From a virus (taxonomy: Duplodnaviria > Heunggongvirae > Uroviricota > Caudoviricetes), in the IMG/VR virus record IMGVR_UViG_3300033049_000033, positions 1 to 64,000 of that record: a stretch of 64,000 bases of DNA. One strand, written 5' to 3'. Positions 2,283 through 16,127 of this stretch are shown piece by piece (position 1 is the stretch's first letter; each line of letters opens with the position of its first letter). The translations under genes and the position numbers were made by a program. Under the pieces are notes generated by a model. That model searched no databases, was not told the origin of the DNA, and saw only the letters and a program-made list of their open reading frames with translations.

Positions 2283-3182
2283 ATGAAGAACAAACCTTTT
2301 AAAATCGCCAGTGGTCGTATCACTGACAGAAATACCCAGTCATTAACGAAGTATCTAAATGAATTATCCGCAATTGACCCATTCACCCCTGAAGAGGAAT
2401 ATGAATGTGGAGTTAAAGCGGCTGCTGGTGACCAAATAGCTAGAAATGAATTGGTTACGAGAAACCTGCGATTTGTGGTTAGTGTAGCTAAAAGTTACGT
2501 TAGAGAGGGGTCACCATTGGGAGACCTTATCAATGAGGGGAATGAGGGTATGACAATTGCAGCAAACAGATATGACCCAACAACGGGCTATAAATTCATT
2601 TCTTACGCTATTTTTTGGATTCGTAGAAACATCATGAACTACTTAGGTGATAACGGACAAATCATCCGTATTCCTAACAACCGTAGAGACGGCATTTCAA
2701 AACTTAAAAGAGAGTTGAGTGATATAGAACAAGTGTTAGGGCGTACTGCAACCTACATGGATTTGATTGATGATAATACCTCTAATGAGCGCATCCAAGA
2801 GTTGGAGTTGTTGACACAAATGGCAGGTCTTAACGTATCCTCAATGGACAAACCATTGGACGTAGAAGGTGCAACAGGTTCTATGTACGAACTTATTGCC
2901 GATGGAACCTTTGGTGATACTGACAAGTTGGTAATTGATAACAGCATGAGTAGAATATTAGAATCAGTACTTAGCCTATTATTACCGATTGAAAGAGCAG
3001 TTATTGAGGCGCGATATGGCCTTAATGGTGGAGCACGACAAACTCTAAAGGAATGTAGTGAGTCTCCTAAAATAAAATCAGATGGTAAAAACATATCCAG
3101 AGAACGGGTTAGACAAATCGAAGCTAAAGCTTTGACAATTCTAAAGGGTCTTATAACTGAACGTGCAATTGAATTAGTATAG
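2283..3182 (+). CDS. RNA polymerase sigma-70 family sigma factor
   Basis: 299 aa; region 2 (NEGNEGMTIAANRYDPTTGYKFISYAIFWIRRNIMNYL) and region 4.2 (ISRERVRQIEAKAL) motifs. Confidence 0.85.
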   Translation: MKNKPFKIASGRITDRNTQSLTKYLNELSAIDPFTPEEEYECGVKAAAGDQIARNELVTRNLRFVVSVAKSYVREGSPLGDLINEGNEGMTIAANRYDPTTGYKFISYAIFWIRRNIMNYLGDNGQIIRIPNNRRDGISKLKRELSDIEQVLGRTATYMDLIDDNTSNERIQELELLTQMAGLNVSSMDKPLDVEGATGSMYELIADGTFGDTDKLVIDNSMSRILESVLSLLLPIERAVIEARYGLNGGARQTLKECSESPKIKSDGKNISRERVRQIEAKALTILKGLITERAIELV

Positions 3183-4305: not shown

Positions 4306-4565
4306 GAGTAGTACAGACCAACGTTAATCAACACATTATGGTTAAGCTAACTCCTAAAGGGATTGAGCATTGGATGGAGGATGTAAACTCGAATCTACCA
4401 ACACACCTCAAACTTACACCAGATATCGTTAAAAATAAAATGGACGACAAAGGGTTCCACACTTTCCAGATTTGGGAGTTTATGGAGATATTCGGAGCAA
4501 AAAGTGGTATGGGAATGCCGACACTATTTGAAACCGAGGTCTTGATAGAAACATCAGTACAATGA
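4302..4565 (+). CDS. hypothetical protein
   Basis: about 87 aa; start at MRVVQ assumed because the upstream ATG overlaps the previous gene; stop overlaps next start (ATGA). Confidence 0.4.
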   Translation: MRVVQTNVNQHIMVKLTPKGIEHWMEDVNSNLPTHLKLTPDIVKNKMDDKGFHTFQIWEFMEIFGAKSGMGMPTLFETEVLIETSVQ

Positions 4566-5224
4566 AAGAGATTAAAGAAACATGTTATAAGGGTACTAGG
4601 ATTCTAATCGGAAACGAGAAGAGAGTAATAACTAATAAGCTAATTGTCAGTATGTTGGCTGCTGGTTTTACCGAGATTTCTATGCCTGTTATCCAACTAT
4701 CTGATACTTTTGATGGTAAGGTGGGCACTGAGAATAACAACCTTATGTATAAGTTTACAGATAGAGGTAATAGAGACCTGTGTTTGGCTCCAGAATATAC
4801 GGCTGTTATACAAGAGTTGGCTAAGACTAAATTGAAGTTTAATAACAATGAAAGGTTATTCTACGTCCAAGAGTGTTTCAGAGGTGAGAAGCCACAAGCT
4901 GGTAGATACAGACAATTCACTCAAGTAGGAGTAGAGGTATTGAATCCTACTGACGACCCTTTAAATGATTTGACTTGGTTAGAGAAATTGGCTAATTTAG
5001 CTGAAGGCATGGTATGGACTTGTCTTCCAGAAGATATAGATTTCACGGTGAACGTGAACATGAATGTGACAAGAGGTTTGGATTATTATAAAGACGGTAA
5101 GGGATTCGAAATTACCATTGATGAGCTTGGCAGTTCCAAGCAAGTAGTTGGAGGAGGAGAGTATGACGGTGGTGTCGGTTTCGCATTGGGACTGGATAGA
5201 ATTTTATCGTTACGCAGAATGTAG
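4562..5224 (+). CDS. minimal histidyl-tRNA synthetase-like class II aaRS catalytic core (HisZ/HisRS paralog)
   Basis: 220 aa; motif 1-like LAPEYTA, motif 2 ECFRGEKPQAGRYRQFTQVGVEV, motif 3 region RGLDYY...GGGEYDGGVGFALGLDRI; no insertion or anticodon-binding domain; motif 3 Arg replaced by Glu. Confidence 0.75.
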   Translation: MKEIKETCYKGTRILIGNEKRVITNKLIVSMLAAGFTEISMPVIQLSDTFDGKVGTENNNLMYKFTDRGNRDLCLAPEYTAVIQELAKTKLKFNNNERLFYVQECFRGEKPQAGRYRQFTQVGVEVLNPTDDPLNDLTWLEKLANLAEGMVWTCLPEDIDFTVNVNMNVTRGLDYYKDGKGFEITIDELGSSKQVVGGGEYDGGVGFALGLDRILSLRRM

Positions 5225-5251
5225 ACGATTAAAAACGACTTCTTTCTGTTA

Positions 5252-5277
5252 GTTGCTATTTATATATAAATAGCAAC
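5252..5277. promoter_or_regulatory. 26-bp perfect AT-rich palindrome immediately upstream of the GIY-YIG gene start
   Basis: GTTGCTATTTATATATAAATAGCAAC; ATG at 5279. Confidence 0.5.
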
Positions 5278-5278
5278 C

Positions 5279-5986
5279 ATGAAACGAGATTTAACAAATG
5301 TAAAGGGATATATCTATAAGCTTACCAGCCCTAATGGTAAGACATACATAGGACAAACAGTTAATAAGAAACAGCGTAAGTATCACTATAATTCGGGAGA
5401 CTTTAAACAACAGACAAAGTTATGGAATAGTGTTAGTAAGTATAATTGGAATCCAGCCGAAACTTATGAAATAATTGAAGAATGTTTATGTGGAGTAGAT
5501 AAAGAGATATTAAATAAACGTGAAACGTATTGGATTGACCATTATAATAGTTTTAAATCTGGGTTAAATTGTAATGTTGGGGGTGATGGGAATTTAGGTA
5601 ACCAGCATAGTGCCGAATCTAAACGTAAAATGAGTGAGGCTAAAATTGGGGTTAAACACCCAGATTGGCGTAACGAGCAAAAAAGAGAATACACTAAAGG
5701 GCGTAAGCATACAGATGAGGCAAAACTTAGAATGAGTGAAGCTAAGATAGCTAACATGACAGATGATGTTAAATCTAAGATTAGTGAAGGGTTGATGGGT
5801 AACCAAAATGGTATAGGTAATTCTGGTAGCCCTAAAAAGGTAGTATGCTTAACCAACAATAAAATATATAATAGTATTAAGGAAGCGGCAAACGAATTGG
5901 GATTACACTCGTCTAATATTATTGCAACTTGTAAAGGTAAACAAAAATATACTGGTGGATATAAATTTAAGTATAATGAAGGATAA
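5279..5986 (+). CDS. GIY-YIG homing endonuclease (I-TevI/Seg-like) with NUMOD3 repeats
   Basis: GYIYKLTSPNGKTYIGQT...RKYHY GIY-YIG motif; repeated HSAESKRKMSEAKIG / HTDEAKLRMSEAKIAN (NUMOD3-like); C-terminal HTH-like KVVCLTNNKIYNSIKEAANELG. Confidence 0.85.
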   Translation: MKRDLTNVKGYIYKLTSPNGKTYIGQTVNKKQRKYHYNSGDFKQQTKLWNSVSKYNWNPAETYEIIEECLCGVDKEILNKRETYWIDHYNSFKSGLNCNVGGDGNLGNQHSAESKRKMSEAKIGVKHPDWRNEQKREYTKGRKHTDEAKLRMSEAKIANMTDDVKSKISEGLMGNQNGIGNSGSPKKVVCLTNNKIYNSIKEAANELGLHSSNIIATCKGKQKYTGGYKFKYNEG

Positions 5987-6725
5987 GAAGAAAATAGTCG
6001 TATTCAGTGGGGCTGGATTGGATAGAGAGTCAGGCGTGAAGACATTTAGAGATAACGAAGATTCTCTGTGGGAGAATTATAATATAGACGATGTGTGTAC
6101 TCCTAACGGATGGAGAAAAGACCCACAATTAGTAACAGACTTCTATAATGAGCGTAGAATGGAATTGGCTAATGTCGAACCTAACGATGCTCATATCGCA
6201 TTAGCCAACTTAGAACGTATTGCCGATGTAGTACATATTACACAAAATGTGACCGATTTATTAGAACGAGGTGGGTCTACATTTGTTCATCACTTACATG
6301 GTGAATTAGGTAAGGTACGAAGCGTAGCTGACGCTAACGAGATATATGATTACGGCACCAAACCTGTTCATTTAGAGGAGGATAGGGCTAAACATAACGC
6401 TAGGCTAAGGCCACACATTGTTTGGTTTGGAGAAATGCCAGACGTAAAGTCGGTTAAGAAAGCATATAAAGTTATATATGAATGCGATGTATTATTGATT
6501 GTAGGTACAAGCCTACAAATTAGTTACACGTTAGATATGTTGATGCAAGCATCGTTAACATGTGAAGTCTATTTCATTGACCCTAACCCAGTTAAATACC
6601 TCGATAGATATACGGATTTAGGTATGATGCCTAATATTACATACATTAAAAAGAATGCTACTGATGGTGTTACAGAAATTGTTAACCGCTTATTAGAACA
6701 AGATGAGTCAGAAGAAGGCAATTAA
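5976..6725 (+). CDS. Sir2-family (sirtuin-like) NAD-dependent protein, zinc-ribbon-less
   Basis: 249 aa from ATG 5976 (overlaps GIY-YIG stop); FSGAGLDRESGV (GAGxS), TQNVTDLLERGG...HHLHG (catalytic His), LLIVGTSLQI; no Cys in the region where sirtuins carry the Zn module. Confidence 0.8.
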   Translation: MKDKKKIVVFSGAGLDRESGVKTFRDNEDSLWENYNIDDVCTPNGWRKDPQLVTDFYNERRMELANVEPNDAHIALANLERIADVVHITQNVTDLLERGGSTFVHHLHGELGKVRSVADANEIYDYGTKPVHLEEDRAKHNARLRPHIVWFGEMPDVKSVKKAYKVIYECDVLLIVGTSLQISYTLDMLMQASLTCEVYFIDPNPVKYLDRYTDLGMMPNITYIKKNATDGVTEIVNRLLEQDESEEGN

Positions 6726-7005
6726 GTACGAGGTATTAGAAGATGCCAAATACGATGAGTTGGGTAAGATTACTGACGTTAGGTATACCGTTAGGTATCA
6801 ATATAGAAATTGGATAGGTATACTAACTTGGAGCTATGTAAAACATAGGGAATCTAGTTATGGTGGGTCATACATGAGAAGAACTACGTTTAAAACAATC
6901 AAAGAGGCGAATAACTTCGTTGAGGAGGTATTGGTTAAAGGAACCCCAGTAAATACATGGTCAGAGAAAACAATCATAAGATATGATTTAGAACATGAAG
7001 ACTAA
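6703..7005 (+). CDS. hypothetical protein
   Basis: 100 aa ORF overlapping the Sir2 3' end. Confidence 0.4.
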   Translation: MSQKKAIKYEVLEDAKYDELGKITDVRYTVRYQYRNWIGILTWSYVKHRESSYGGSYMRRTTFKTIKEANNFVEEVLVKGTPVNTWSEKTIIRYDLEHED

Positions 7006-7378
7006 GGATAAGTCCAAAATTAGATTTAATCTTAGTAGAGGTGACCACTATATGAAGTGGCAGATACGAGACCCACATGGTAATGTTGAATACTACGAAC
7101 CTTCTGAAGTCACTTTAGTGATGGAGGAGTGTGTCTTACGCAACAATAAACGAGGAGCTAAAGAAATATTCAGTGGTGGTGACAAGACTGTTGTCGCTTG
7201 GGTAGAATGTGCGAAAGTAGAGGTATTTAGACGTGTTGCCATCAAGAGTATGAAGGATACTAAGGTTGAATACAATCCTAAAAAACAACCATATTGGTAT
7301 ATCAATGGAGAGGACTCTGATAAAGTAGAGTTGTCCATGATTCATTCAGTAGGGAGGGAGCTATTCACATCAAATTAA
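6995..7378 (+). CDS. hypothetical protein
   Basis: 127 aa ORF; no motif. Confidence 0.45.
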   Translation: MKTKDKSKIRFNLSRGDHYMKWQIRDPHGNVEYYEPSEVTLVMEECVLRNNKRGAKEIFSGGDKTVVAWVECAKVEVFRRVAIKSMKDTKVEYNPKKQPYWYINGEDSDKVELSMIHSVGRELFTSN

Positions 7379-7457
7379 ATCAAATTTATTTTTATTTATA
7401 GTTGTTTTTCTCGAATATTATTCGTATATTTGTAGTACCAAAACATTAAGATAGAAC

Positions 7458-8888
7458 ATGAAAATTAAACAGATTCTGGACGAGATAGCCAATGAGCCGT
7501 CAACTAATAACAAAATGACAATCCTCAGAAAGTATGAGGAAAATAACACACTTAAGAGAGTCCTGTACATGGCCAAATCAAAGAGGCTAAAGTACTATAT
7601 CAAACAAATACCAGAATATATTATACCAGCACTATATCCAAAGATGACACTGGAAGAAGCACTGGAAGAATTAACTCCATTATTAGAACGTACTGTTACT
7701 GGACATGAGGCCATTAAGCATTTAGCAACCATTTTAGGAAGTCTTGAGTCTGATGATGCATACGTTATTGAACGTATCATTGATAGGAGCCTTAAAATTG
7801 ACATGGGCACCTCCAACATCAACAAAGTATTTCCAGCACTAATCGAGAAGACCCCATATATGGGAGCTAAGTCTTTTGATGAGAAACTTGTGCGTAAATT
7901 ATTTGACGGAGTTCAAGTTGACCCTAAGTTAGCTGGTAAGCGTGTATATAGTCAAATCAAAGAAGATGGACGTTATGCAAATGCTATCATTCGTGATGGT
8001 GAAGCCGAATTTGAATCTCGTTCTGGTGAGACAACTCATGTTGGTGATGCACTGGTACTGAAAGAGTTAGCCCAATTTGGAGATTGCGTACTTAACGGAG
8101 AACTTACCATTAAAGGACTTGACCGATATACTGCAAATGGTATCATCGCATCAATCGTTGATATTGAAGGTAAGCGTGAGTCTCGTACCGAAACGGAAAC
8201 ATCTAAAAAGCTTACTAAATTTGAAGGAAAGCATGGTAATTACCCTGAGATGTTAAATAGAATTGAGTATGTTATCTGGGATTGGATTCCAGTAAGTGCA
8301 TATTTTGACCAGAAATGTAACATTCCATATAGAGTTAGGTTAGATTGTGTGTTAGAGTTAAAAACTCTTTATAAAATAACTTTAGTTAGAGTGGTAGAGA
8401 CGATACAAGTGGACACTTATGCTGAGGCAATGGAGCACTTTGTAAATGCTTTAGATAGAGGATTGGAAGGTACTATCGTTAAAGCTAGTGATAGTACATG
8501 GAAACACGGTAAACCAAACTGGCAGGTGAAAATGAAACTTGAGTTGACTCTTGACTTCAGAATCATTGGGTTCAACTATGGAAATAAAGGTACTAAAAAT
8601 GAGAACGTTATTTCAACATTACAAGTGGAATCTGAGTGTGGGTTATTGAAGACCAATCCGTCTGGAATGGACGATGAGATGATGCAATTCGTCACCGATA
8701 ACCAAGATACTCTTATGGGTACGGTTGTGGAAATGAGATGCTGTGGGCTATCCCAAGATAGTAAGGGTAATTGGTCAACGATGCACCCATCAGTAGTGAA
8801 GCTACGTGACGATAAAGATGTTTGTGATACTCTGGAGACGGCAAAGCAGGTTGAAGAGATGGCCAAGTCGTTAGAAACAGAAGTATAA
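7458..8888 (+). CDS. ATP-dependent DNA ligase (T4 Lig-like)
   Basis: 476 aa; motif I KEDGRY (SQIKEDGRYANAII), motif IV EGTIVK, motif V WQVKMK; preceded by AT-rich promoter region. Confidence 0.85.
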   Translation: MKIKQILDEIANEPSTNNKMTILRKYEENNTLKRVLYMAKSKRLKYYIKQIPEYIIPALYPKMTLEEALEELTPLLERTVTGHEAIKHLATILGSLESDDAYVIERIIDRSLKIDMGTSNINKVFPALIEKTPYMGAKSFDEKLVRKLFDGVQVDPKLAGKRVYSQIKEDGRYANAIIRDGEAEFESRSGETTHVGDALVLKELAQFGDCVLNGELTIKGLDRYTANGIIASIVDIEGKRESRTETETSKKLTKFEGKHGNYPEMLNRIEYVIWDWIPVSAYFDQKCNIPYRVRLDCVLELKTLYKITLVRVVETIQVDTYAEAMEHFVNALDRGLEGTIVKASDSTWKHGKPNWQVKMKLELTLDFRIIGFNYGNKGTKNENVISTLQVESECGLLKTNPSGMDDEMMQFVTDNQDTLMGTVVEMRCCGLSQDSKGNWSTMHPSVVKLRDDKDVCDTLETAKQVEEMAKSLETEV

Positions 8889-12177: not shown

Positions 12178-12969
12178 ATGACAACAATAATTACAAAGCA
12201 ATCCGAACTCTTTGTGAGTGGTTTAAGTGTAAAAAACTATTCCAAATCCACTATTGACCAATACAACTCTATTCTTAAAAAGTTTTTAAGGTTCTTTCGT
12301 AAGTCCCCTAATAGAATATCATCTGATGAAATAGTCTTGTGGTTATCAAAATTAAAATCATCATCCGCAAAAAGGCAAGCGGTTGGGGCTATTCGCAATT
12401 ATTATACTCACGTAGTTGGTCAACCGAATAAATTCAAGAGAGTACCTTATCCAAAGAAGGAACGAATCCTACCTCAAATATTTTCTCAACAAGTAGTAAT
12501 TAAAAGGATTGGTAGGGTTAAAAATTTTAAGCACAAGATGATTATTTCGGTTCTATATGGTTCGGGAATAAGGCTTTCGGAGTTACTTGATTTAAAATTA
12601 AGTGATATTGACGGGGTTAGGAATACTTTATTCATCAGACATGGAAAGGGAAGAAAGGACCGCATAGTTCCCGTGTCAGTGAAATTAATTTCAGACCTTA
12701 GAAGGTACTTCAAAGAGTATCGACCTAAAGGTTATTTATTTGAAGGGCAAACTGGTGGTAGATATTCAGGGACTTCAGTTCAGAAAATTTGTAAGAAACA
12801 CATGAAGTGCAATCCACATTTATTACGACACCAAAATTTGACACACTTAATAGAATCGGGAGTTCATTTATCTGAAGTAAGTCGTAGGGCTGGTCACTCG
12901 AAAATTTCGACTACACATGATGTTTACAGCCATATAATCACAACATTCAACCCTATAACACTATTATAA
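12178..12969 (+). CDS. tyrosine site-specific recombinase (XerC/D-integrase family)
   Basis: 263 aa; N-terminal SAM-like domain; catalytic R (GIRLSEL), HLLRHQ (HxxR), GHSKISTTHDVYSHI (Tyr nucleophile). Confidence 0.8.
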   Translation: MTTIITKQSELFVSGLSVKNYSKSTIDQYNSILKKFLRFFRKSPNRISSDEIVLWLSKLKSSSAKRQAVGAIRNYYTHVVGQPNKFKRVPYPKKERILPQIFSQQVVIKRIGRVKNFKHKMIISVLYGSGIRLSELLDLKLSDIDGVRNTLFIRHGKGRKDRIVPVSVKLISDLRRYFKEYRPKGYLFEGQTGGRYSGTSVQKICKKHMKCNPHLLRHQNLTHLIESGVHLSEVSRRAGHSKISTTHDVYSHIITTFNPITLL

Positions 12970-12974
12970 TATAT

Positions 12975-13010
12975 TTGGTTTTGTCAAAATAATTTTGTAT
13001 CTTTGTATTA
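12975..13010 (+). promoter_or_regulatory. Bacteroidetes-type promoter (TTTG-N19-TATCTTTG) for the RNA ligase N-fragment gene
   Basis: TTTG at 12975-12978, TATCTTTG at 12998-13005. Confidence 0.55.
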
Positions 13011-13042
13011 CGGAATTGAAGGTCTTCAAAAGAAATGAGAAA

Positions 13043-13843
13043 ATGGAACTAGCGATAGTTAAGTACATAAAAGAACATGGTTTAGCGAAAGCTATTAAAG
13101 ATTTTAGTCTTAAGTCTAGAATTTACCAAGATAAAATTTTACTAAAATATGACCAGCTTAACTCACCATTCGGTAATAGAGAAGTTGAAGAATGTAGAGG
13201 TCTCATTTTAGAACGAGATACTTGGAGAGTTATGTCTCTTGGTCTAACCAAGTTCTATAATTCTGCTGAGGGTCACGCTGCTAAAATTGGTTGGGATACT
13301 GCTAGAGTCTTGAAGAAAGAAGATGGTTGTTGTCATAGAGACACTATCCTTAAGACTGAGGATGGTGATATGACCATTAAAGAAATCTGTGATACTGAAT
13401 ATGCTGGTAAGGTTCTATCTTACGATATTGAATCTGGGGAAACCGTATATGACGAGATAGTAGCTCATTCGACTAAAAATAATATCGATAATTGGTATGA
13501 AATTGAGTTAGAAGATGGTACTACCATTAAATTAACTGCTAACCATAAAGTATGGTTACCGAATCTTAATTGTTACAGGGCAGTAGAAAACCTTACTGAG
13601 GACGATGAATTCTTAGTGTTAAACATTAGTGATATGGAATATATAAAATGTGTCGATAAGTTCGGTAACGAAGTAAAGGATGGTGATTTAGTGGACATAC
13701 AAAAAGCTGGTGCTTATAAGGTTTATAAAAAGAATAGCCAGCTTTACTTTAAACCTTATGGTGAAGAAGAAAGGGTGTCTGCTTATTTTAGTAATGACAT
13801 GGTAAAGTGTGATGAAGATGGATGTTGGTTAGATGTGACCTAA
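13043..13843 (+). CDS. RNA ligase 1 (T4 RnlA-like) N-terminal fragment fused to the N-part of a split intein
   Basis: N-extein ECRGLILERD...ARVLKKEDG (nucleotidyltransferase motif I) ends at 13327; CCHRDTILKTEDG (intein block A) and LTANHKVW (block B) follow; ORF stops at 13843. The upstream ATG at 12995 lies inside the promoter, so 13043 is used. Confidence 0.75.
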   Translation: MELAIVKYIKEHGLAKAIKDFSLKSRIYQDKILLKYDQLNSPFGNREVEECRGLILERDTWRVMSLGLTKFYNSAEGHAAKIGWDTARVLKKEDGCCHRDTILKTEDGDMTIKEICDTEYAGKVLSYDIESGETVYDEIVAHSTKNNIDNWYEIELEDGTTIKLTANHKVWLPNLNCYRAVENLTEDDEFLVLNISDMEYIKCVDKFGNEVKDGDLVDIQKAGAYKVYKKNSQLYFKPYGEEERVSAYFSNDMVKCDEDGCWLDVT

Positions 13844-13957
13844 TCGCATATAGATAGAATTTCACCAAGCACGTTAGAATATTTAGTTTTAAAATAAGAG
13901 GACGATTATCTAACTTTTCCAGTACTTGAGACTATTTATGGTTAAAGGTATTAGATT

Positions 13958-14899
13958 ATGGAAAAGATGATATGTGAAAAGTGTGGTGGTGAGTTTAGTA
14001 ACAAGATGTTTAAGTTGCACGTTAAGAATTCACATTCAGATGAATTTGACTCAAACGAAGATTTAGATAGATTTGTTCTTAAATATCGATTTAACTTAAC
14101 TGATGAATTTCTATCCGAACTCATCTCTGAATACAAAGAGGTGGGTTTGGTTGACCGATTAGTTAAGAAATATAACATACCACATAAAAGTATGTCAGAA
14201 ATACTTTCACTAAATGGCGTTACTTTAAATACCTTTAAGGAAGCTTGCTCACTACCACATAAACATCAAGCTTATGTGGACACATGTAAAGATAGATACG
14301 GTGTGGAGAATGTATCCCAGTTAGAATCAATTCAGAAGAAAAAAGAGGATACATTCCTTAAAAATTATGGTGTAACTAACATCTTCAAAGACCCTGAAGC
14401 GCAAAAGATGTTCGGTGAGGTAATAGAAGAAAGATATGGTAGTAAAAGATTAAGTGGTTGGCACAAATTAGGTGCTGGTGGTAAGATAGAGTGGCTTAAG
14501 CGATTAAATTCCAGTAGGGGTAAGCAATCGAAGCTAGAACTAAGGGTGGGGAATATCTTAACGGATTTAAGTGTTAATTGGGAACCACAATATGAGATTA
14601 AAGGTAAATACTACGACTTCAGAATAAAGGGGTTAAAGTTGCTTATAGAGGTGAATGGAGATTTTTGGCATGCAAATCCTGAGAAATATAGGGCTAACGA
14701 TATACTACCGTTCCCGACTAAGAATGGTGTAAAAAGTGAGATTACTGCCAAATCATTGTGGAAGAAAGATGAAAAAAAATTAAAGATTGCTAGGAATTGT
14801 GGTTTTTTTTGTGTATCTTTGTGGGAGAATGATATGAAATGTATGTCTGACGAAGAGTTAGGTATTAAATTATTAGACATAATAAACAACATTATCTAA
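13958..14899 (+). CDS. free-standing Vsr-like (PD-(D/E)xK) homing endonuclease between the split-intein halves
   Basis: 313 aa; N-terminal CEKCGG zinc-finger-like; C-terminal LLIEVNGDFWHANPEKY resembling the Vsr FxDGxFWH motif. Confidence 0.7.
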   Translation: MEKMICEKCGGEFSNKMFKLHVKNSHSDEFDSNEDLDRFVLKYRFNLTDEFLSELISEYKEVGLVDRLVKKYNIPHKSMSEILSLNGVTLNTFKEACSLPHKHQAYVDTCKDRYGVENVSQLESIQKKKEDTFLKNYGVTNIFKDPEAQKMFGEVIEERYGSKRLSGWHKLGAGGKIEWLKRLNSSRGKQSKLELRVGNILTDLSVNWEPQYEIKGKYYDFRIKGLKLLIEVNGDFWHANPEKYRANDILPFPTKNGVKSEITAKSLWKKDEKKLKIARNCGFFCVSLWENDMKCMSDEELGIKLLDIINNII

Positions 14900-14908
14900 T
14901 TTAATAAG

Positions 14909-15157
14909 ATGGAAGAAAGGTTAAACAGATTAACAGAGCAACGGGGTTCAATGAACAAACAAACAACAACCATAGAGATATTAGACTATATAGAAAATCT
15001 GTTAGAGATAGAGAAGGAAGATTTTAGACGAAAACAATTAAAAGCTGTGTCTGATGGAAATCAAGATTATCATGGTGCGATAACATGTGCAACAGCAAGG
15101 TCTGTTACTATGGGAATACTAAGTACAATAATGACTGACACTATTGATTGTAGGTAA
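14909..15157 (+). CDS. hypothetical protein
   Basis: 82 aa ORF between the endonuclease gene and the C-intein gene. Confidence 0.3.
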   Translation: MEERLNRLTEQRGSMNKQTTTIEILDYIENLLEIEKEDFRRKQLKAVSDGNQDYHGAITCATARSVTMGILSTIMTDTIDCR

Positions 15158-16127
15158 TAACGCAATTATGAAAATAATTAAAATTAAAAGAATTAGTAAG
15201 TTGGCGTCAGACTCTAAGAGGTATGATATCGAGACAAAGAATACTCATAATTTCTTTGCTGATGGTATTCTAGTGCATAACTCTTGCATCAACCTATACT
15301 ACGACTGGATTAAGGAAGAGTGGTTCGCTGCTACTACTGGTATGGCAGAGGGTGAGGGTGAAATCAATAACCGTGAGAATACCTCATTCAACGACTTGTT
15401 CTGGGAAACCGTTAGGAACAAGTATGATGAGGATAAGTTCAAGGATAACTTGGAGATTGGTTTCACTTACGTTTTTGAATTGACCACTCCGTATAATATA
15501 GTTGTTGCACCTCATACCGAATCTAGGGTAACCTTATTAACCATCAGGAGTCTGCGTAACTTAAAAGAGTTAGCCTCATCAATATGTTTTGCGGAAGCCT
15601 ATGGTCTAGGGGTACCAATTGTCGAGGAATATGACCTTAATAGCGGTAATGTTGAATTTCTTTTAAGGACATTCGAGAATATGGACGCTTTTTCGGAGGG
15701 TTACGTAGTTGTAGATGATAAATTCAATCGTATTAAGATAAAGAATCCAAAATACGTAGCGATTCACCATTTAAAATCGAAGACATCTTCATATGCAATT
15801 ATGGAGATAATAAAATCTAATGAAGTAGATGAGTTTATCGCCACATTCCCTGAAAGAGAAGTAGAAATCAAAGCACTTAGGGTTAGTTATAATAACCTAA
15901 TTGTGGAATTAGAAGCTTTGTGGGGCATACTTGAAGTTCATAAACCAAAGAATATTACACCAGCAGAACGTAAGAAATTCGCAACCAAAGTTTTCGAGGT
16001 GGTTGATGTCAACGATAAAAAGACGTTCACAGGGTTATATTTCGGTCTTATGGACGGAAAAGTAACTTCAATTGTGGATTATATCCGAAACATGGACAAT
16101 AAAAGACTTTTCGCTTTATTAACTTAA
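15144..16127 (+). CDS. C-part of split intein fused to RNA ligase 1 C-terminal fragment
   Basis: MKIIKIKRISKLASDSKRYDIETKNTHNFFADGILVHN (Npu DnaE IntC-like) ends at 15281; C-extein starts SCINLYYD so the joined junction reads KEDG-S (T4 Rnl1 motif I is KEDGSL); EGYVVVDDKFNRIKIKNPKYV matches Rnl1. Likely start is the Met at 15168. Confidence 0.75.
   Translation: MIVGNNAIMKIIKIKRISKLASDSKRYDIETKNTHNFFADGILVHNSCINLYYDWIKEEWFAATTGMAEGEGEINNRENTSFNDLFWETVRNKYDEDKFKDNLEIGFTYVFELTTPYNIVVAPHTESRVTLLTIRSLRNLKELASSICFAEAYGLGVPIVEEYDLNSGNVEFLLRTFENMDAFSEGYVVVDDKFNRIKIKNPKYVAIHHLKSKTSSYAIMEIIKSNEVDEFIATFPEREVEIKALRVSYNNLIVELEALWGILEVHKPKNITPAERKKFATKVFEVVDVNDKKTFTGLYFGLMDGKVTSIVDYIRNMDNKRLFALLT

Follow-up and report, generated by a model that had tools for sequence, protein, structure and literature searches.

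Histidyl-tRNA synthetases of bacteria (HisRS; E. coli structures 1KMM, 1HTT and 2EL9, T. thermophilus structure 4RDX) are proteins of ~420 residues in which a class II catalytic fold with motifs 1-3 is combined with an insertion domain and an anticodon-binding domain. The HisRS paralogue HisZ has no anticodon-binding domain, keeps the insertion region within ~300-390 residues, acts in partnership with HisG and is devoid of adenylation activity (PMC9437257). Appendage-free HisRS cores are known as laboratory constructs, the urzymes; histidine is activated by such fragments of E. coli HisRS with a length of 119-145 residues (PMC3060492). Another small class II enzyme, this one natural, is the pyrrolysyl-tRNA synthetase (PylRS) of M. 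alvus and ISO4-G1, which is devoid of the N-terminal domain (~273 residues) and ignores the anticodon. In a 64,000-nucleotide stretch of Caudoviricetes DNA (positions 1 to 64,000 of IMG/VR virus record IMGVR_UViG_3300033049_000033, called the window in the following), a gene on the + strand (4562-5224) has been found to encode a 220-residue protein with a class II HisRS catalytic core, here named mini-HisRS. It belongs to a virus-restricted and strongly conserved family in which a complete HisRS active site is contained in 205-220 residues, and whose genes are often found among tRNA arrays. This family is the new element of the region, as the two genes that follow on the same strand, a free-standing GIY-YIG homing endonuclease (5279-5986) and a zinc-less sirtuin (Sir2, 5976-6725), are ordinary members of known phage families. 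A preliminary description of this DNA had regarded mini-HisRS and Sir2 as a functional pair split by the endonuclease; we consider it highly probable that the family assignments are right and that the region holds three independent elements rather than a module. The explanation as a whole, which adds to this that mini-HisRS charges tRNAHis, is held with moderate confidence.

The class II HisRS motifs quoted for the 220-residue open reading frame (ORF) in the preliminary description have been borne out by Pfam (tRNA-synt_His, 3.5e-21, and also tRNA-synt_2b). The residues of the active site have been counted on a HMMER alignment to E. coli HisRS 1HTT, their conservation has been taken from alignments of 37 and 120 family members, and their roles are in part those of the E. 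coli structures of Arnez and Francklyn, in part those given in PMC4357726. All mapped residues are invariant or nearly so. Motif 1 is represented by P42 at the dimer interface, corresponding to the motif 1 Pro of E. coli, and motif 2 (FRGEKPQAGRYRQF) contains R107 and E109 (E. coli R113 and E115), followed in the motif-2 loop by K110 and Q112 (R116 and Q118) and by R115 and R117 (R121 and R123). F119 corresponds to F125, which stacks on the adenine, and Q121 and E125 of the histidine pocket to Q127 and E131, with G206 and F207 forming the floor of the imidazole pocket. The HisRS-specific peptides are present as well: the HisA peptide reads LAPEYT for LRPEGT and keeps E78 and T80 (E. coli E83 and T85), RGLDYY is intact with R171, Y175 and Y176 (R259, Y263 and Y264), and the histidine-2 peptide reads GGGEYD for GGRYD, with the Gly-Gly backbone contacts kept by G198 and G199. 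The canonical motif-3 Arg is R213 in the G-L-D-R of GFALGLDR, which aligns with E. coli R311 in G-L-E-R.

The last assignment bears directly on the earlier view that the protein is unlikely to be a tRNA synthetase and rather resembles HisZ, since this view had been based on a Glu in place of the ATP-binding Arg of motif 3. The Glu in question, E200, instead corresponds to the Arg next after Gly-Gly in the GGRYD peptide, and with this mis-assignment the premise falls. In the tRNA complex, the GGRYD peptide contacts the histidine through the main chain of Gly-Gly (PMC4357726). Position 200 is Glu in 110 of the 120 close members and Thr, Ser, Arg or Lys in more distant ones, and the closest full-length HisRSs (423-436 residues) read GGGEYN or GGGTYN here; because these enzymes also carry Glu or Thr, E200 should not disqualify mini-HisRS as a synthetase. 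The part of the active site facing the tRNA is equally well preserved. In the complex of T. thermophilus HisRS with tRNAHis, the acceptor end is contacted by E114, R115, Q117, R120 and R122, among which E114 is essential, whereas mutants of insertion-domain contacts have shown little effect (more than half of the activity in R197A, wild-type behaviour in K209A; PMC4357726). The mini-HisRS equivalents of the five acceptor-end contacts are E109, K110, Q112, R115 and R117. The fold agrees with the alignment: the AF2 model has a pLDDT of 88 and a pTM of 0.86, and its best Foldseek matches in the PDB are chains of E. coli HisRS (TMq 0.72-0.78), followed by the catalytic domains of the small anticodon-blind PylRSs. 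The latter are the next-best full-length matches in fold and in sequence, but are ~55 residues longer, share 14-17% identity, and differ in the amino-acid pocket and in the tRNA.

Compared with this completeness of the catalytic core, the losses elsewhere are large. The alignment skips E. coli HisRS residues ~134-241, i.e., the insertion domain, and stops at the motif-3 strand, so that the anticodon-binding domain is missing too, as had been described, together with 11 residues of the loop preceding motif 3. A profile that finds the positive controls has detected no stand-alone anticodon-binding domain in the 64-kb window, whichever frame is read. Three related proteins of 313-349 residues (P0317, P0295 and P0299) are devoid of the insertion domain and retain the anticodon-binding domain; intermediates between normal HisRS and the mini form thus exist. 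An N-terminal catalytic-domain fragment of E. coli HisRS reportedly still charges tRNAHis weakly (Augustine and Francklyn 1997). A short ORF without C-terminal domains might also be left over from the N-terminal part of a full-length hisS that has decayed. This candidate has been rejected and retains hardly any probability, as the same length and the same termini recur in thousands of sequences, the dN/dS ratio is ~0.1, and the closest syntenic relative shows the stop codon followed by Sir2 after a short spacer of 33 nt.

The family behind these numbers is large. A search of 5.8 billion proteins (E<=1e-5) has returned 2469 homologues, of which the best 120 are all 204-293 residues long (117 of them <=239) with 58-76% identity to the query, and the contigs carrying homologues reach 678 kb. 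When representatives at 50% identity were searched exhaustively with a profile, ~55 clusters were found to share the short single-stretch architecture, scoring ahead of and among full-length HisRSs. The nearest members in the phage collection are two records of 'uncultured phage' (LR745206 and LR756502, 634-642 kb) with 50-54% identity, in neither of which a second HisRS-like gene is detectable with the mini-HisRS query (one place per record). A more distant 196-residue homologue with 40% identity, annotated as histidyl-tRNA synthetase, is found in Sinorhizobium phage Phosso (469 kb), and IMG/VR adds 55 loci, many of them on contigs of 300-675 kb. Among the matches listed for prokaryotes (185,579 species with one representative genome each), two are short forms, both on ~25-kb contigs of metagenome-assembled genomes (Omnitrophota and Flavobacterium) that are probably binned phage DNA, and the remaining 78 are ordinary hisS genes with an insertion domain. 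The family is thus essentially viral, old and diverse. Across 37 aligned members of 204-243 residues, 72 columns are invariant, and a dN/dS of 0.08-0.12 against the two closest orthologues shows the gene to be under purifying selection. Unlike the engineered HisRS fragments, mini-HisRS is therefore a natural and widespread protein under selection, which in addition dispenses with the insertion domain.

PHROGs contain no family matching mini-HisRS, a look-up of the family's clusters has returned hardly any names, and pipeline labels are inconsistent, naming members either HisRS or HisZ. A full-text literature search has found no description of a truncated or minimal phage HisRS family, so that the family is seemingly undescribed as well as large and restricted to viruses. 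Two of its members deserve separate mention. On the 678-kb JGI contig, which bears one of the closest mini-HisRS genes (L005), a eukaryotic-type topoisomerase IB and an ankyrin-repeat protein are encoded nearby (12361-13368 and 20572-end). In a 564-residue metagenomic protein (P0241), a LAGLIDADG intein sits exactly between Y79 and T80 of the histidine-binding loop (CLAPEY/TA), with Cys as its first residue, HN at its end and Thr at position +1; inteins usually sit in conserved active-site motifs.

We infer that mini-HisRS is an enzymatically active, minimal histidine-activating enzyme. It would bind histidine and ATP and form histidyl-adenylate like HisRS, after which the histidine would most probably be moved to a tRNAHis of the host or the phage. 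Through the conserved motif-2 loop, this tRNA would be recognised solely at its acceptor end (G-1:C73 and CCA), and the outcome would be that charging of His-tRNA is maintained during infection. For the tRNA step itself, i.e., real charging of tRNAHis by way of the acceptor end only, we see the chances as evenly divided. The more far-reaching proposal, that the family comprises the smallest natural fully functional synthetases (~205-220 residues), charging tRNAHis or any tRNA with G-1:C73 and leaving the anticodon unread, would extend to GUG tRNAs of 86-90 nt described below; it is advanced tentatively, at somewhat less than even probability.

The genomic surroundings of the gene have been compared between 67 loci for protein neighbours and, after dereplication at 95% identity, 49 loci for tRNA counts, with 80 phage Sir2 loci on similar contigs serving as control. 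tRNA genes occur within 10 kb of mini-HisRS in 25 of the 49 loci as against 8 of the 80 controls (odds ratio 9.4, Fisher p = 5e-7), and ten of the 49 loci have a tRNA on the same strand at a distance of <=350 nt. In Phosso (L003) and in two further loci (L019 and L060), a tRNA-His(GUG) directly adjoins mini-HisRS. G-1 and C73 are encoded by every tRNA-His gene in these loci; a HisRS lacking the anticodon-binding domain would still be able to use these acceptor-end identity elements. As a separate observation, five loci contain tRNAs with a His anticodon (GTG) and a length of 86-90 nt (L019 9820-9909, L029 8026-8115, L030 5893-5982, L032 8687-8775 and L039 7690-7775), which lie beside normal tRNA-His genes of 73-76 nt and likewise all have G-1 and C73. 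They contain a long extra arm or an insertion, and a long-arm tRNA-His is unusual. All-against-all clustering of the neighbours at the 67 loci has revealed no conserved protein partner, although hisG has not been searched by name, and the only recurrent protein family is that of GIY-YIG endonucleases (18 loci), the others being lineage-specific ORFs.

These data also bear on the possibility that mini-HisRS is a non-catalytic mimic, i.e., a regulator that senses histidine or resembles HisZ, or a subunit that forms a heterodimer with host HisRS or HisG and thereby poisons or retargets it. The motif 1 interface of class II dimers is kept (P42, E38 and I39), both tRNA-binding appendages are gone, and one member has been named ATP phosphoribosyltransferase regulatory subunit (HisZ) by the NCBI pipeline; the window protein matches the hisZ model (TIGR00443) at an E-value of 1e-26. 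The same protein, however, scores higher on hisS (TIGR00442) than on hisZ (141.4 against 93.9 bits), with the hisZ value far below the cut-off of 271.65 bits and the hisS value below its own. The side chains binding ATP, histidine and the acceptor end are invariant under strong purifying selection, which is more than binding alone requires, and inactive paralogues of the HisZ type would not be expected to keep the full catalytic set. Moreover, mini-HisRS is linked to tRNA arrays, and no partner such as hisG has been seen among its neighbours, within the limit just given for the neighbour clustering. We therefore regard a mimic as unlikely.

Several observations weigh against tRNAHis charging and have to be set beside those in its favour. 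The hisS score of mini-HisRS lies well below the model's cut-off (286.75 bits). About half of the mini-HisRS loci have no tRNA within 10 kb, no tRNA gene has been found in the 64-kb window itself, and a preference for tRNA-His as the closest tRNA, suggestive in three lineages, does not reach significance in the dereplicated set (2 of 10, p = 0.16). Some distant relatives have lost RGLDYY, as in P0372, and parts of motif 2 (GGLRES), which suggests that a part of the wider family is probably inactive. Loss of both tRNA-binding appendages should weaken the binding of tRNA, the G-1 pocket of HisRS is built across the dimer, and to our knowledge no natural class II synthetase of this small size has been known. 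The loci without a nearby tRNA would also suit a different function, in which histidine is activated and then passed to a non-tRNA acceptor (a carrier protein, a small molecule or a protein), as in the SerRS-like amino-acid:carrier-protein ligases or AsnA. Such a role is usual for truncated synthetase paralogues without anticodon-binding domains (PMC9437257). Against it stand the invariance of those residues in the motif-2 loop that keep C72-A76 of tRNAHis in place, the embedding of mini-HisRS in same-strand tRNA arrays, and the lack of a conserved partner gene, for a carrier protein or otherwise, at the 67 loci, and its probability appears as low as that of the mimic.

If mini-HisRS does charge tRNA, the lower limit on the size of natural synthetases would have to be revised, and it would follow that recognition of the acceptor end alone can sustain the identity of tRNAHis in vivo. 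Ideas on ancestral class II enzymes of minimal size could then be tested on a natural case. The family would parallel in nature the engineered HisRS urzymes, and for orthogonal tRNA/synthetase pairs it would offer a compact scaffold. For the annotation of huge phages, the family bears on how sets of translation genes are read, as its members are labelled 'histidyl-tRNA synthetase' or 'HisZ' without comment.

The preliminary description had further treated mini-HisRS and Sir2 as an ancestral two-gene unit and as an undescribed module for an NAD/ADP-ribose-based modification or for counter-defence. Adjacency as such is real in a small group. The closest syntenic relative (L063) has both genes (71% identity for mini-HisRS, 68% for Sir2) in the same order from sigma factor to DNA ligase, with 33 nt between the mini-HisRS stop and the Sir2 start, and a relative from Tara (L065) has a 63-residue ORF in the spacer. 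As the spacer is empty in L063 and occupied by this ORF in L065 and by the endonuclease cassette in the window, it is a hot spot of insertion. The three genomes share their whole gene order and consequently count as one observation. Already in the next relative (L067, 63% identity), Sir2 is missing from the vicinity. Among 57 other loci, a single one has Sir2 at a distance of up to 10 kb from mini-HisRS (5.3 kb away and on the opposite strand), and conversely no mini-HisRS has been found over the same distance around any of the 80 Sir2 loci. Genomes that carry both genes, e.g., the megaphages LR745206 and LR756502 and the IMG/VR contigs 3300025012_000055 and 3300028558_000016, have them 30-90 kb apart. 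As regards adjacency, the ground for refutation named in the preliminary description, that the two genes never co-occur elsewhere, essentially applies. The two genes are neighbours solely because gene order is kept locally within a small clade of marine phages, and a conserved module does not exist. A joint role in the upkeep of tRNA could still be imagined, provided that RNA repair is the function of the phage sirtuin (PMC9503650), and an Rnl1-type RNA ligase is encoded ~7 kb downstream. Given the lack of linkage in independent loci, a spacer that tolerates unrelated insertions, and a Sir2 that is not of the defence NADase type, a two-gene module appears very improbable.

The description of the gene between the two as a free-standing GIY-YIG/NUMOD3 endonuclease has stood up to analysis. 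The ORF at 5279-5986 (+) contains GIY-YIG, NUMOD3 and I-HmuI-NUMOD domains (Pfam and PHROG), and since it is missing at the same site in the syntenic L063 and L065, it represents an insertion. The perfect 26-bp palindrome reported in front of it has likewise been recovered, at 5252-5277 on the + strand (GTTGCTATTTATA followed by TATAAATAGCAAC), ending 1 nt before the ATG of the endonuclease. As RNA, it is predicted to form a hairpin of -14.7 kcal/mol (z = -4.4), better than 200 of 200 shuffled sequences, and expression of the endonuclease cassette is probably under its control, at the level of translation or transcription; a hairpin close to the start codon recalls the translational control of T4 endonuclease genes. 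The palindrome also holds TATAAATA, the octamer of T4 late promoters, on both strands (5257-5272). A T4-type late promoter at this place has been considered and dropped, since the window contains 12 copies of the octamer against an expectation of 12.9 and thus shows no enrichment, and scans of promoters and terminators have remained at background level.

A comparable arrangement recurs outside of the clade. In L052 (4893-4950), a GIY-YIG gene starts at the same +55 nt from the mini-HisRS stop and is preceded by a hairpin with an 11-bp stem that ends at the ATG, with identities to the window of 52% for mini-HisRS and 32% for the endonuclease. In L045 (9727-10452), a GIY-YIG gene on the opposite strand overlaps the 3' end of mini-HisRS, and in L011 and L013 (L011 9150-9815) one is located 186 nt upstream. 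Such an occurrence beside mini-HisRS in unrelated lineages is the usual conduct of free-standing homing endonucleases that target a conserved gene, and the nearly invariant 3' end of mini-HisRS (GGGEYDGGxGFAxGxDR) is a plausible candidate for the recognition site. With the free-standing GIY-YIG enzymes of T4-like phages (Seg proteins and relatives of I-TevI), the window protein shares the architecture of GIY-YIG, NUMOD3 and a C-terminal NUMOD/helix-turn-helix part, the intergenic position next to a conserved gene, the presence/absence polymorphism, and the hairpin at the start codon. A homing endonuclease with its preceding hairpin has invaded the spacer between mini-HisRS and Sir2.

The sirtuin has been assigned by Pfam (SIR2, 6.8e-34) and by phrog_2162 (2.3e-46) and is a stand-alone protein of 249 residues. 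The mechanical start of its ORF is a TTG at 5922; most likely the ATG at 5976 (MKDKKKIVVFSGAG), which has also been called on the source contig, is the true start, giving an overlap of 11 nt with the endonuclease stop. The catalytic His (HLHGE) is intact, as described earlier, and H108 is invariant among the 120 closest homologues, in 118 of which Y57 and, likewise, R60 of the class III Y-x-x-R pair (FYNERR) are found. Also in line with that description, the protein has no Cys between HG and FGE, where the zinc positions of E. coli CobB are located. Its relatives carry 0-3 Cys in this segment, and a Cys4 site is present in none of the 68 scorable sequences among the 120, so that the loss of zinc is a trait of the clade. 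The supposedly intact GAGxS motif actually reads GAGLD, with Asp at this position in 81 of the 120 homologues. Together with the loss of the zinc cysteines, GAGLD(R/K)ESG for GAGISAESG and QNV(S/D/T)D for QNIDN are signatures of the clade.

The preliminary description had placed this protein with the SIR2 NADase domains of defence systems rather than with CobB, and here the opposite has been found. The best sequence matches in the PDB are E. coli CobB (1S5P, 2e-38, and 6RXJ, E ~1e-38), followed by Sir2Af1 and Sirt5, and the AF2 model (pLDDT 92.7) superimposes on CobB with a TMt of 0.89 and a root-mean-square deviation of 2.6 A in Foldseek. PADLOC has given no match, and none of the defence SIR2 proteins (ThsA, DSR, SIR2-HerA and SIR2-APAZ) is among the top 50 fold matches in the PDB. 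With E. coli CobB and human Sirt5, the window protein shares the Rossmann GAG motif, the catalytic His, the Y-x-x-R pair and the CobB fold, whereas it has no zinc cysteines, belongs to a clade reading GAGLD and QNV(S/T)D instead of GAGIS and QNIDN, and scores below the CobB cut-offs of NCBIfam. Relatives are found in ~1000 phage records; T5-like, rV5-like, KVP40-like and jumbo phages are among them, as are the megaphages that also encode mini-HisRS. The window Sir2 thus belongs to the described clade of phage sirtuins and has a class III fold resembling that of CobB. Most viral sirtuins have been placed in 'a distinct clade' by Iyer et al. (2022), who propose a KptA-like removal of RNA 2'-phosphates on the basis of neighbouring genes for tRNA ligase, 2H, Nudix and cREC proteins (PMC9503650). 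The surroundings of the window gene resemble this neighbourhood only loosely, with the Rnl1-type ligase mentioned above, a DNA ligase close by and, further upstream on the source contig, a gene for a Nudix protein, and almost no RNA ligases have been found with limited queries near the 80 related Sir2 loci. The protein may act as a protein-lysine deacylase or, as proposed for the clade, as an RNA 2'-phosphate ADP-ribosyltransferase.

The window as a whole is AT-rich (GC content ~0.35), with short genes and nearly all coding on the + strand. A megablast search of the region against GenBank phages has returned zero matches, and the phage accordingly has no close sequenced relative in GenBank; metagenome contigs from JGI (37.6 and 125.6 kb) carry the same DNA. 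A phage-like feature upstream of mini-HisRS is a sigma-70-type factor (2283-3182). Downstream of Sir2, the block at 6703-8888 (+) is syntenic with L063 and L065 and comprises a 100-residue ORF, a 127-residue ORF resembling L5 gp82, and an ATP-dependent DNA ligase (7458-8888, +; Pfam/PHROG); it is context and no part of a module. Just ahead of the first position of the window, the source contig encodes a Nudix hydrolase, a homologue of translation initiation factor IF3 and a second sigma-factor-like gene (L004 2939-3983), and L065 likewise contains IF3-like genes; the neighbourhood is rich in genes for translation and RNA. Further downstream, a tyrosine recombinase (12178-12969) is located directly upstream of the ORF for the T4 Rnl1-type RNA ligase, which seems broken up (12995-16127, +). 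The ORF at 12995-13843 combines the N-terminus of the ligase with the N-part of an intein/Hint domain, a separate DUF7487 gene lies within the interrupted region (13958-14899), and the ORF at 15144-16127 begins with a C-terminal intein splicing block, so that the interruption may represent a split or invaded intein.

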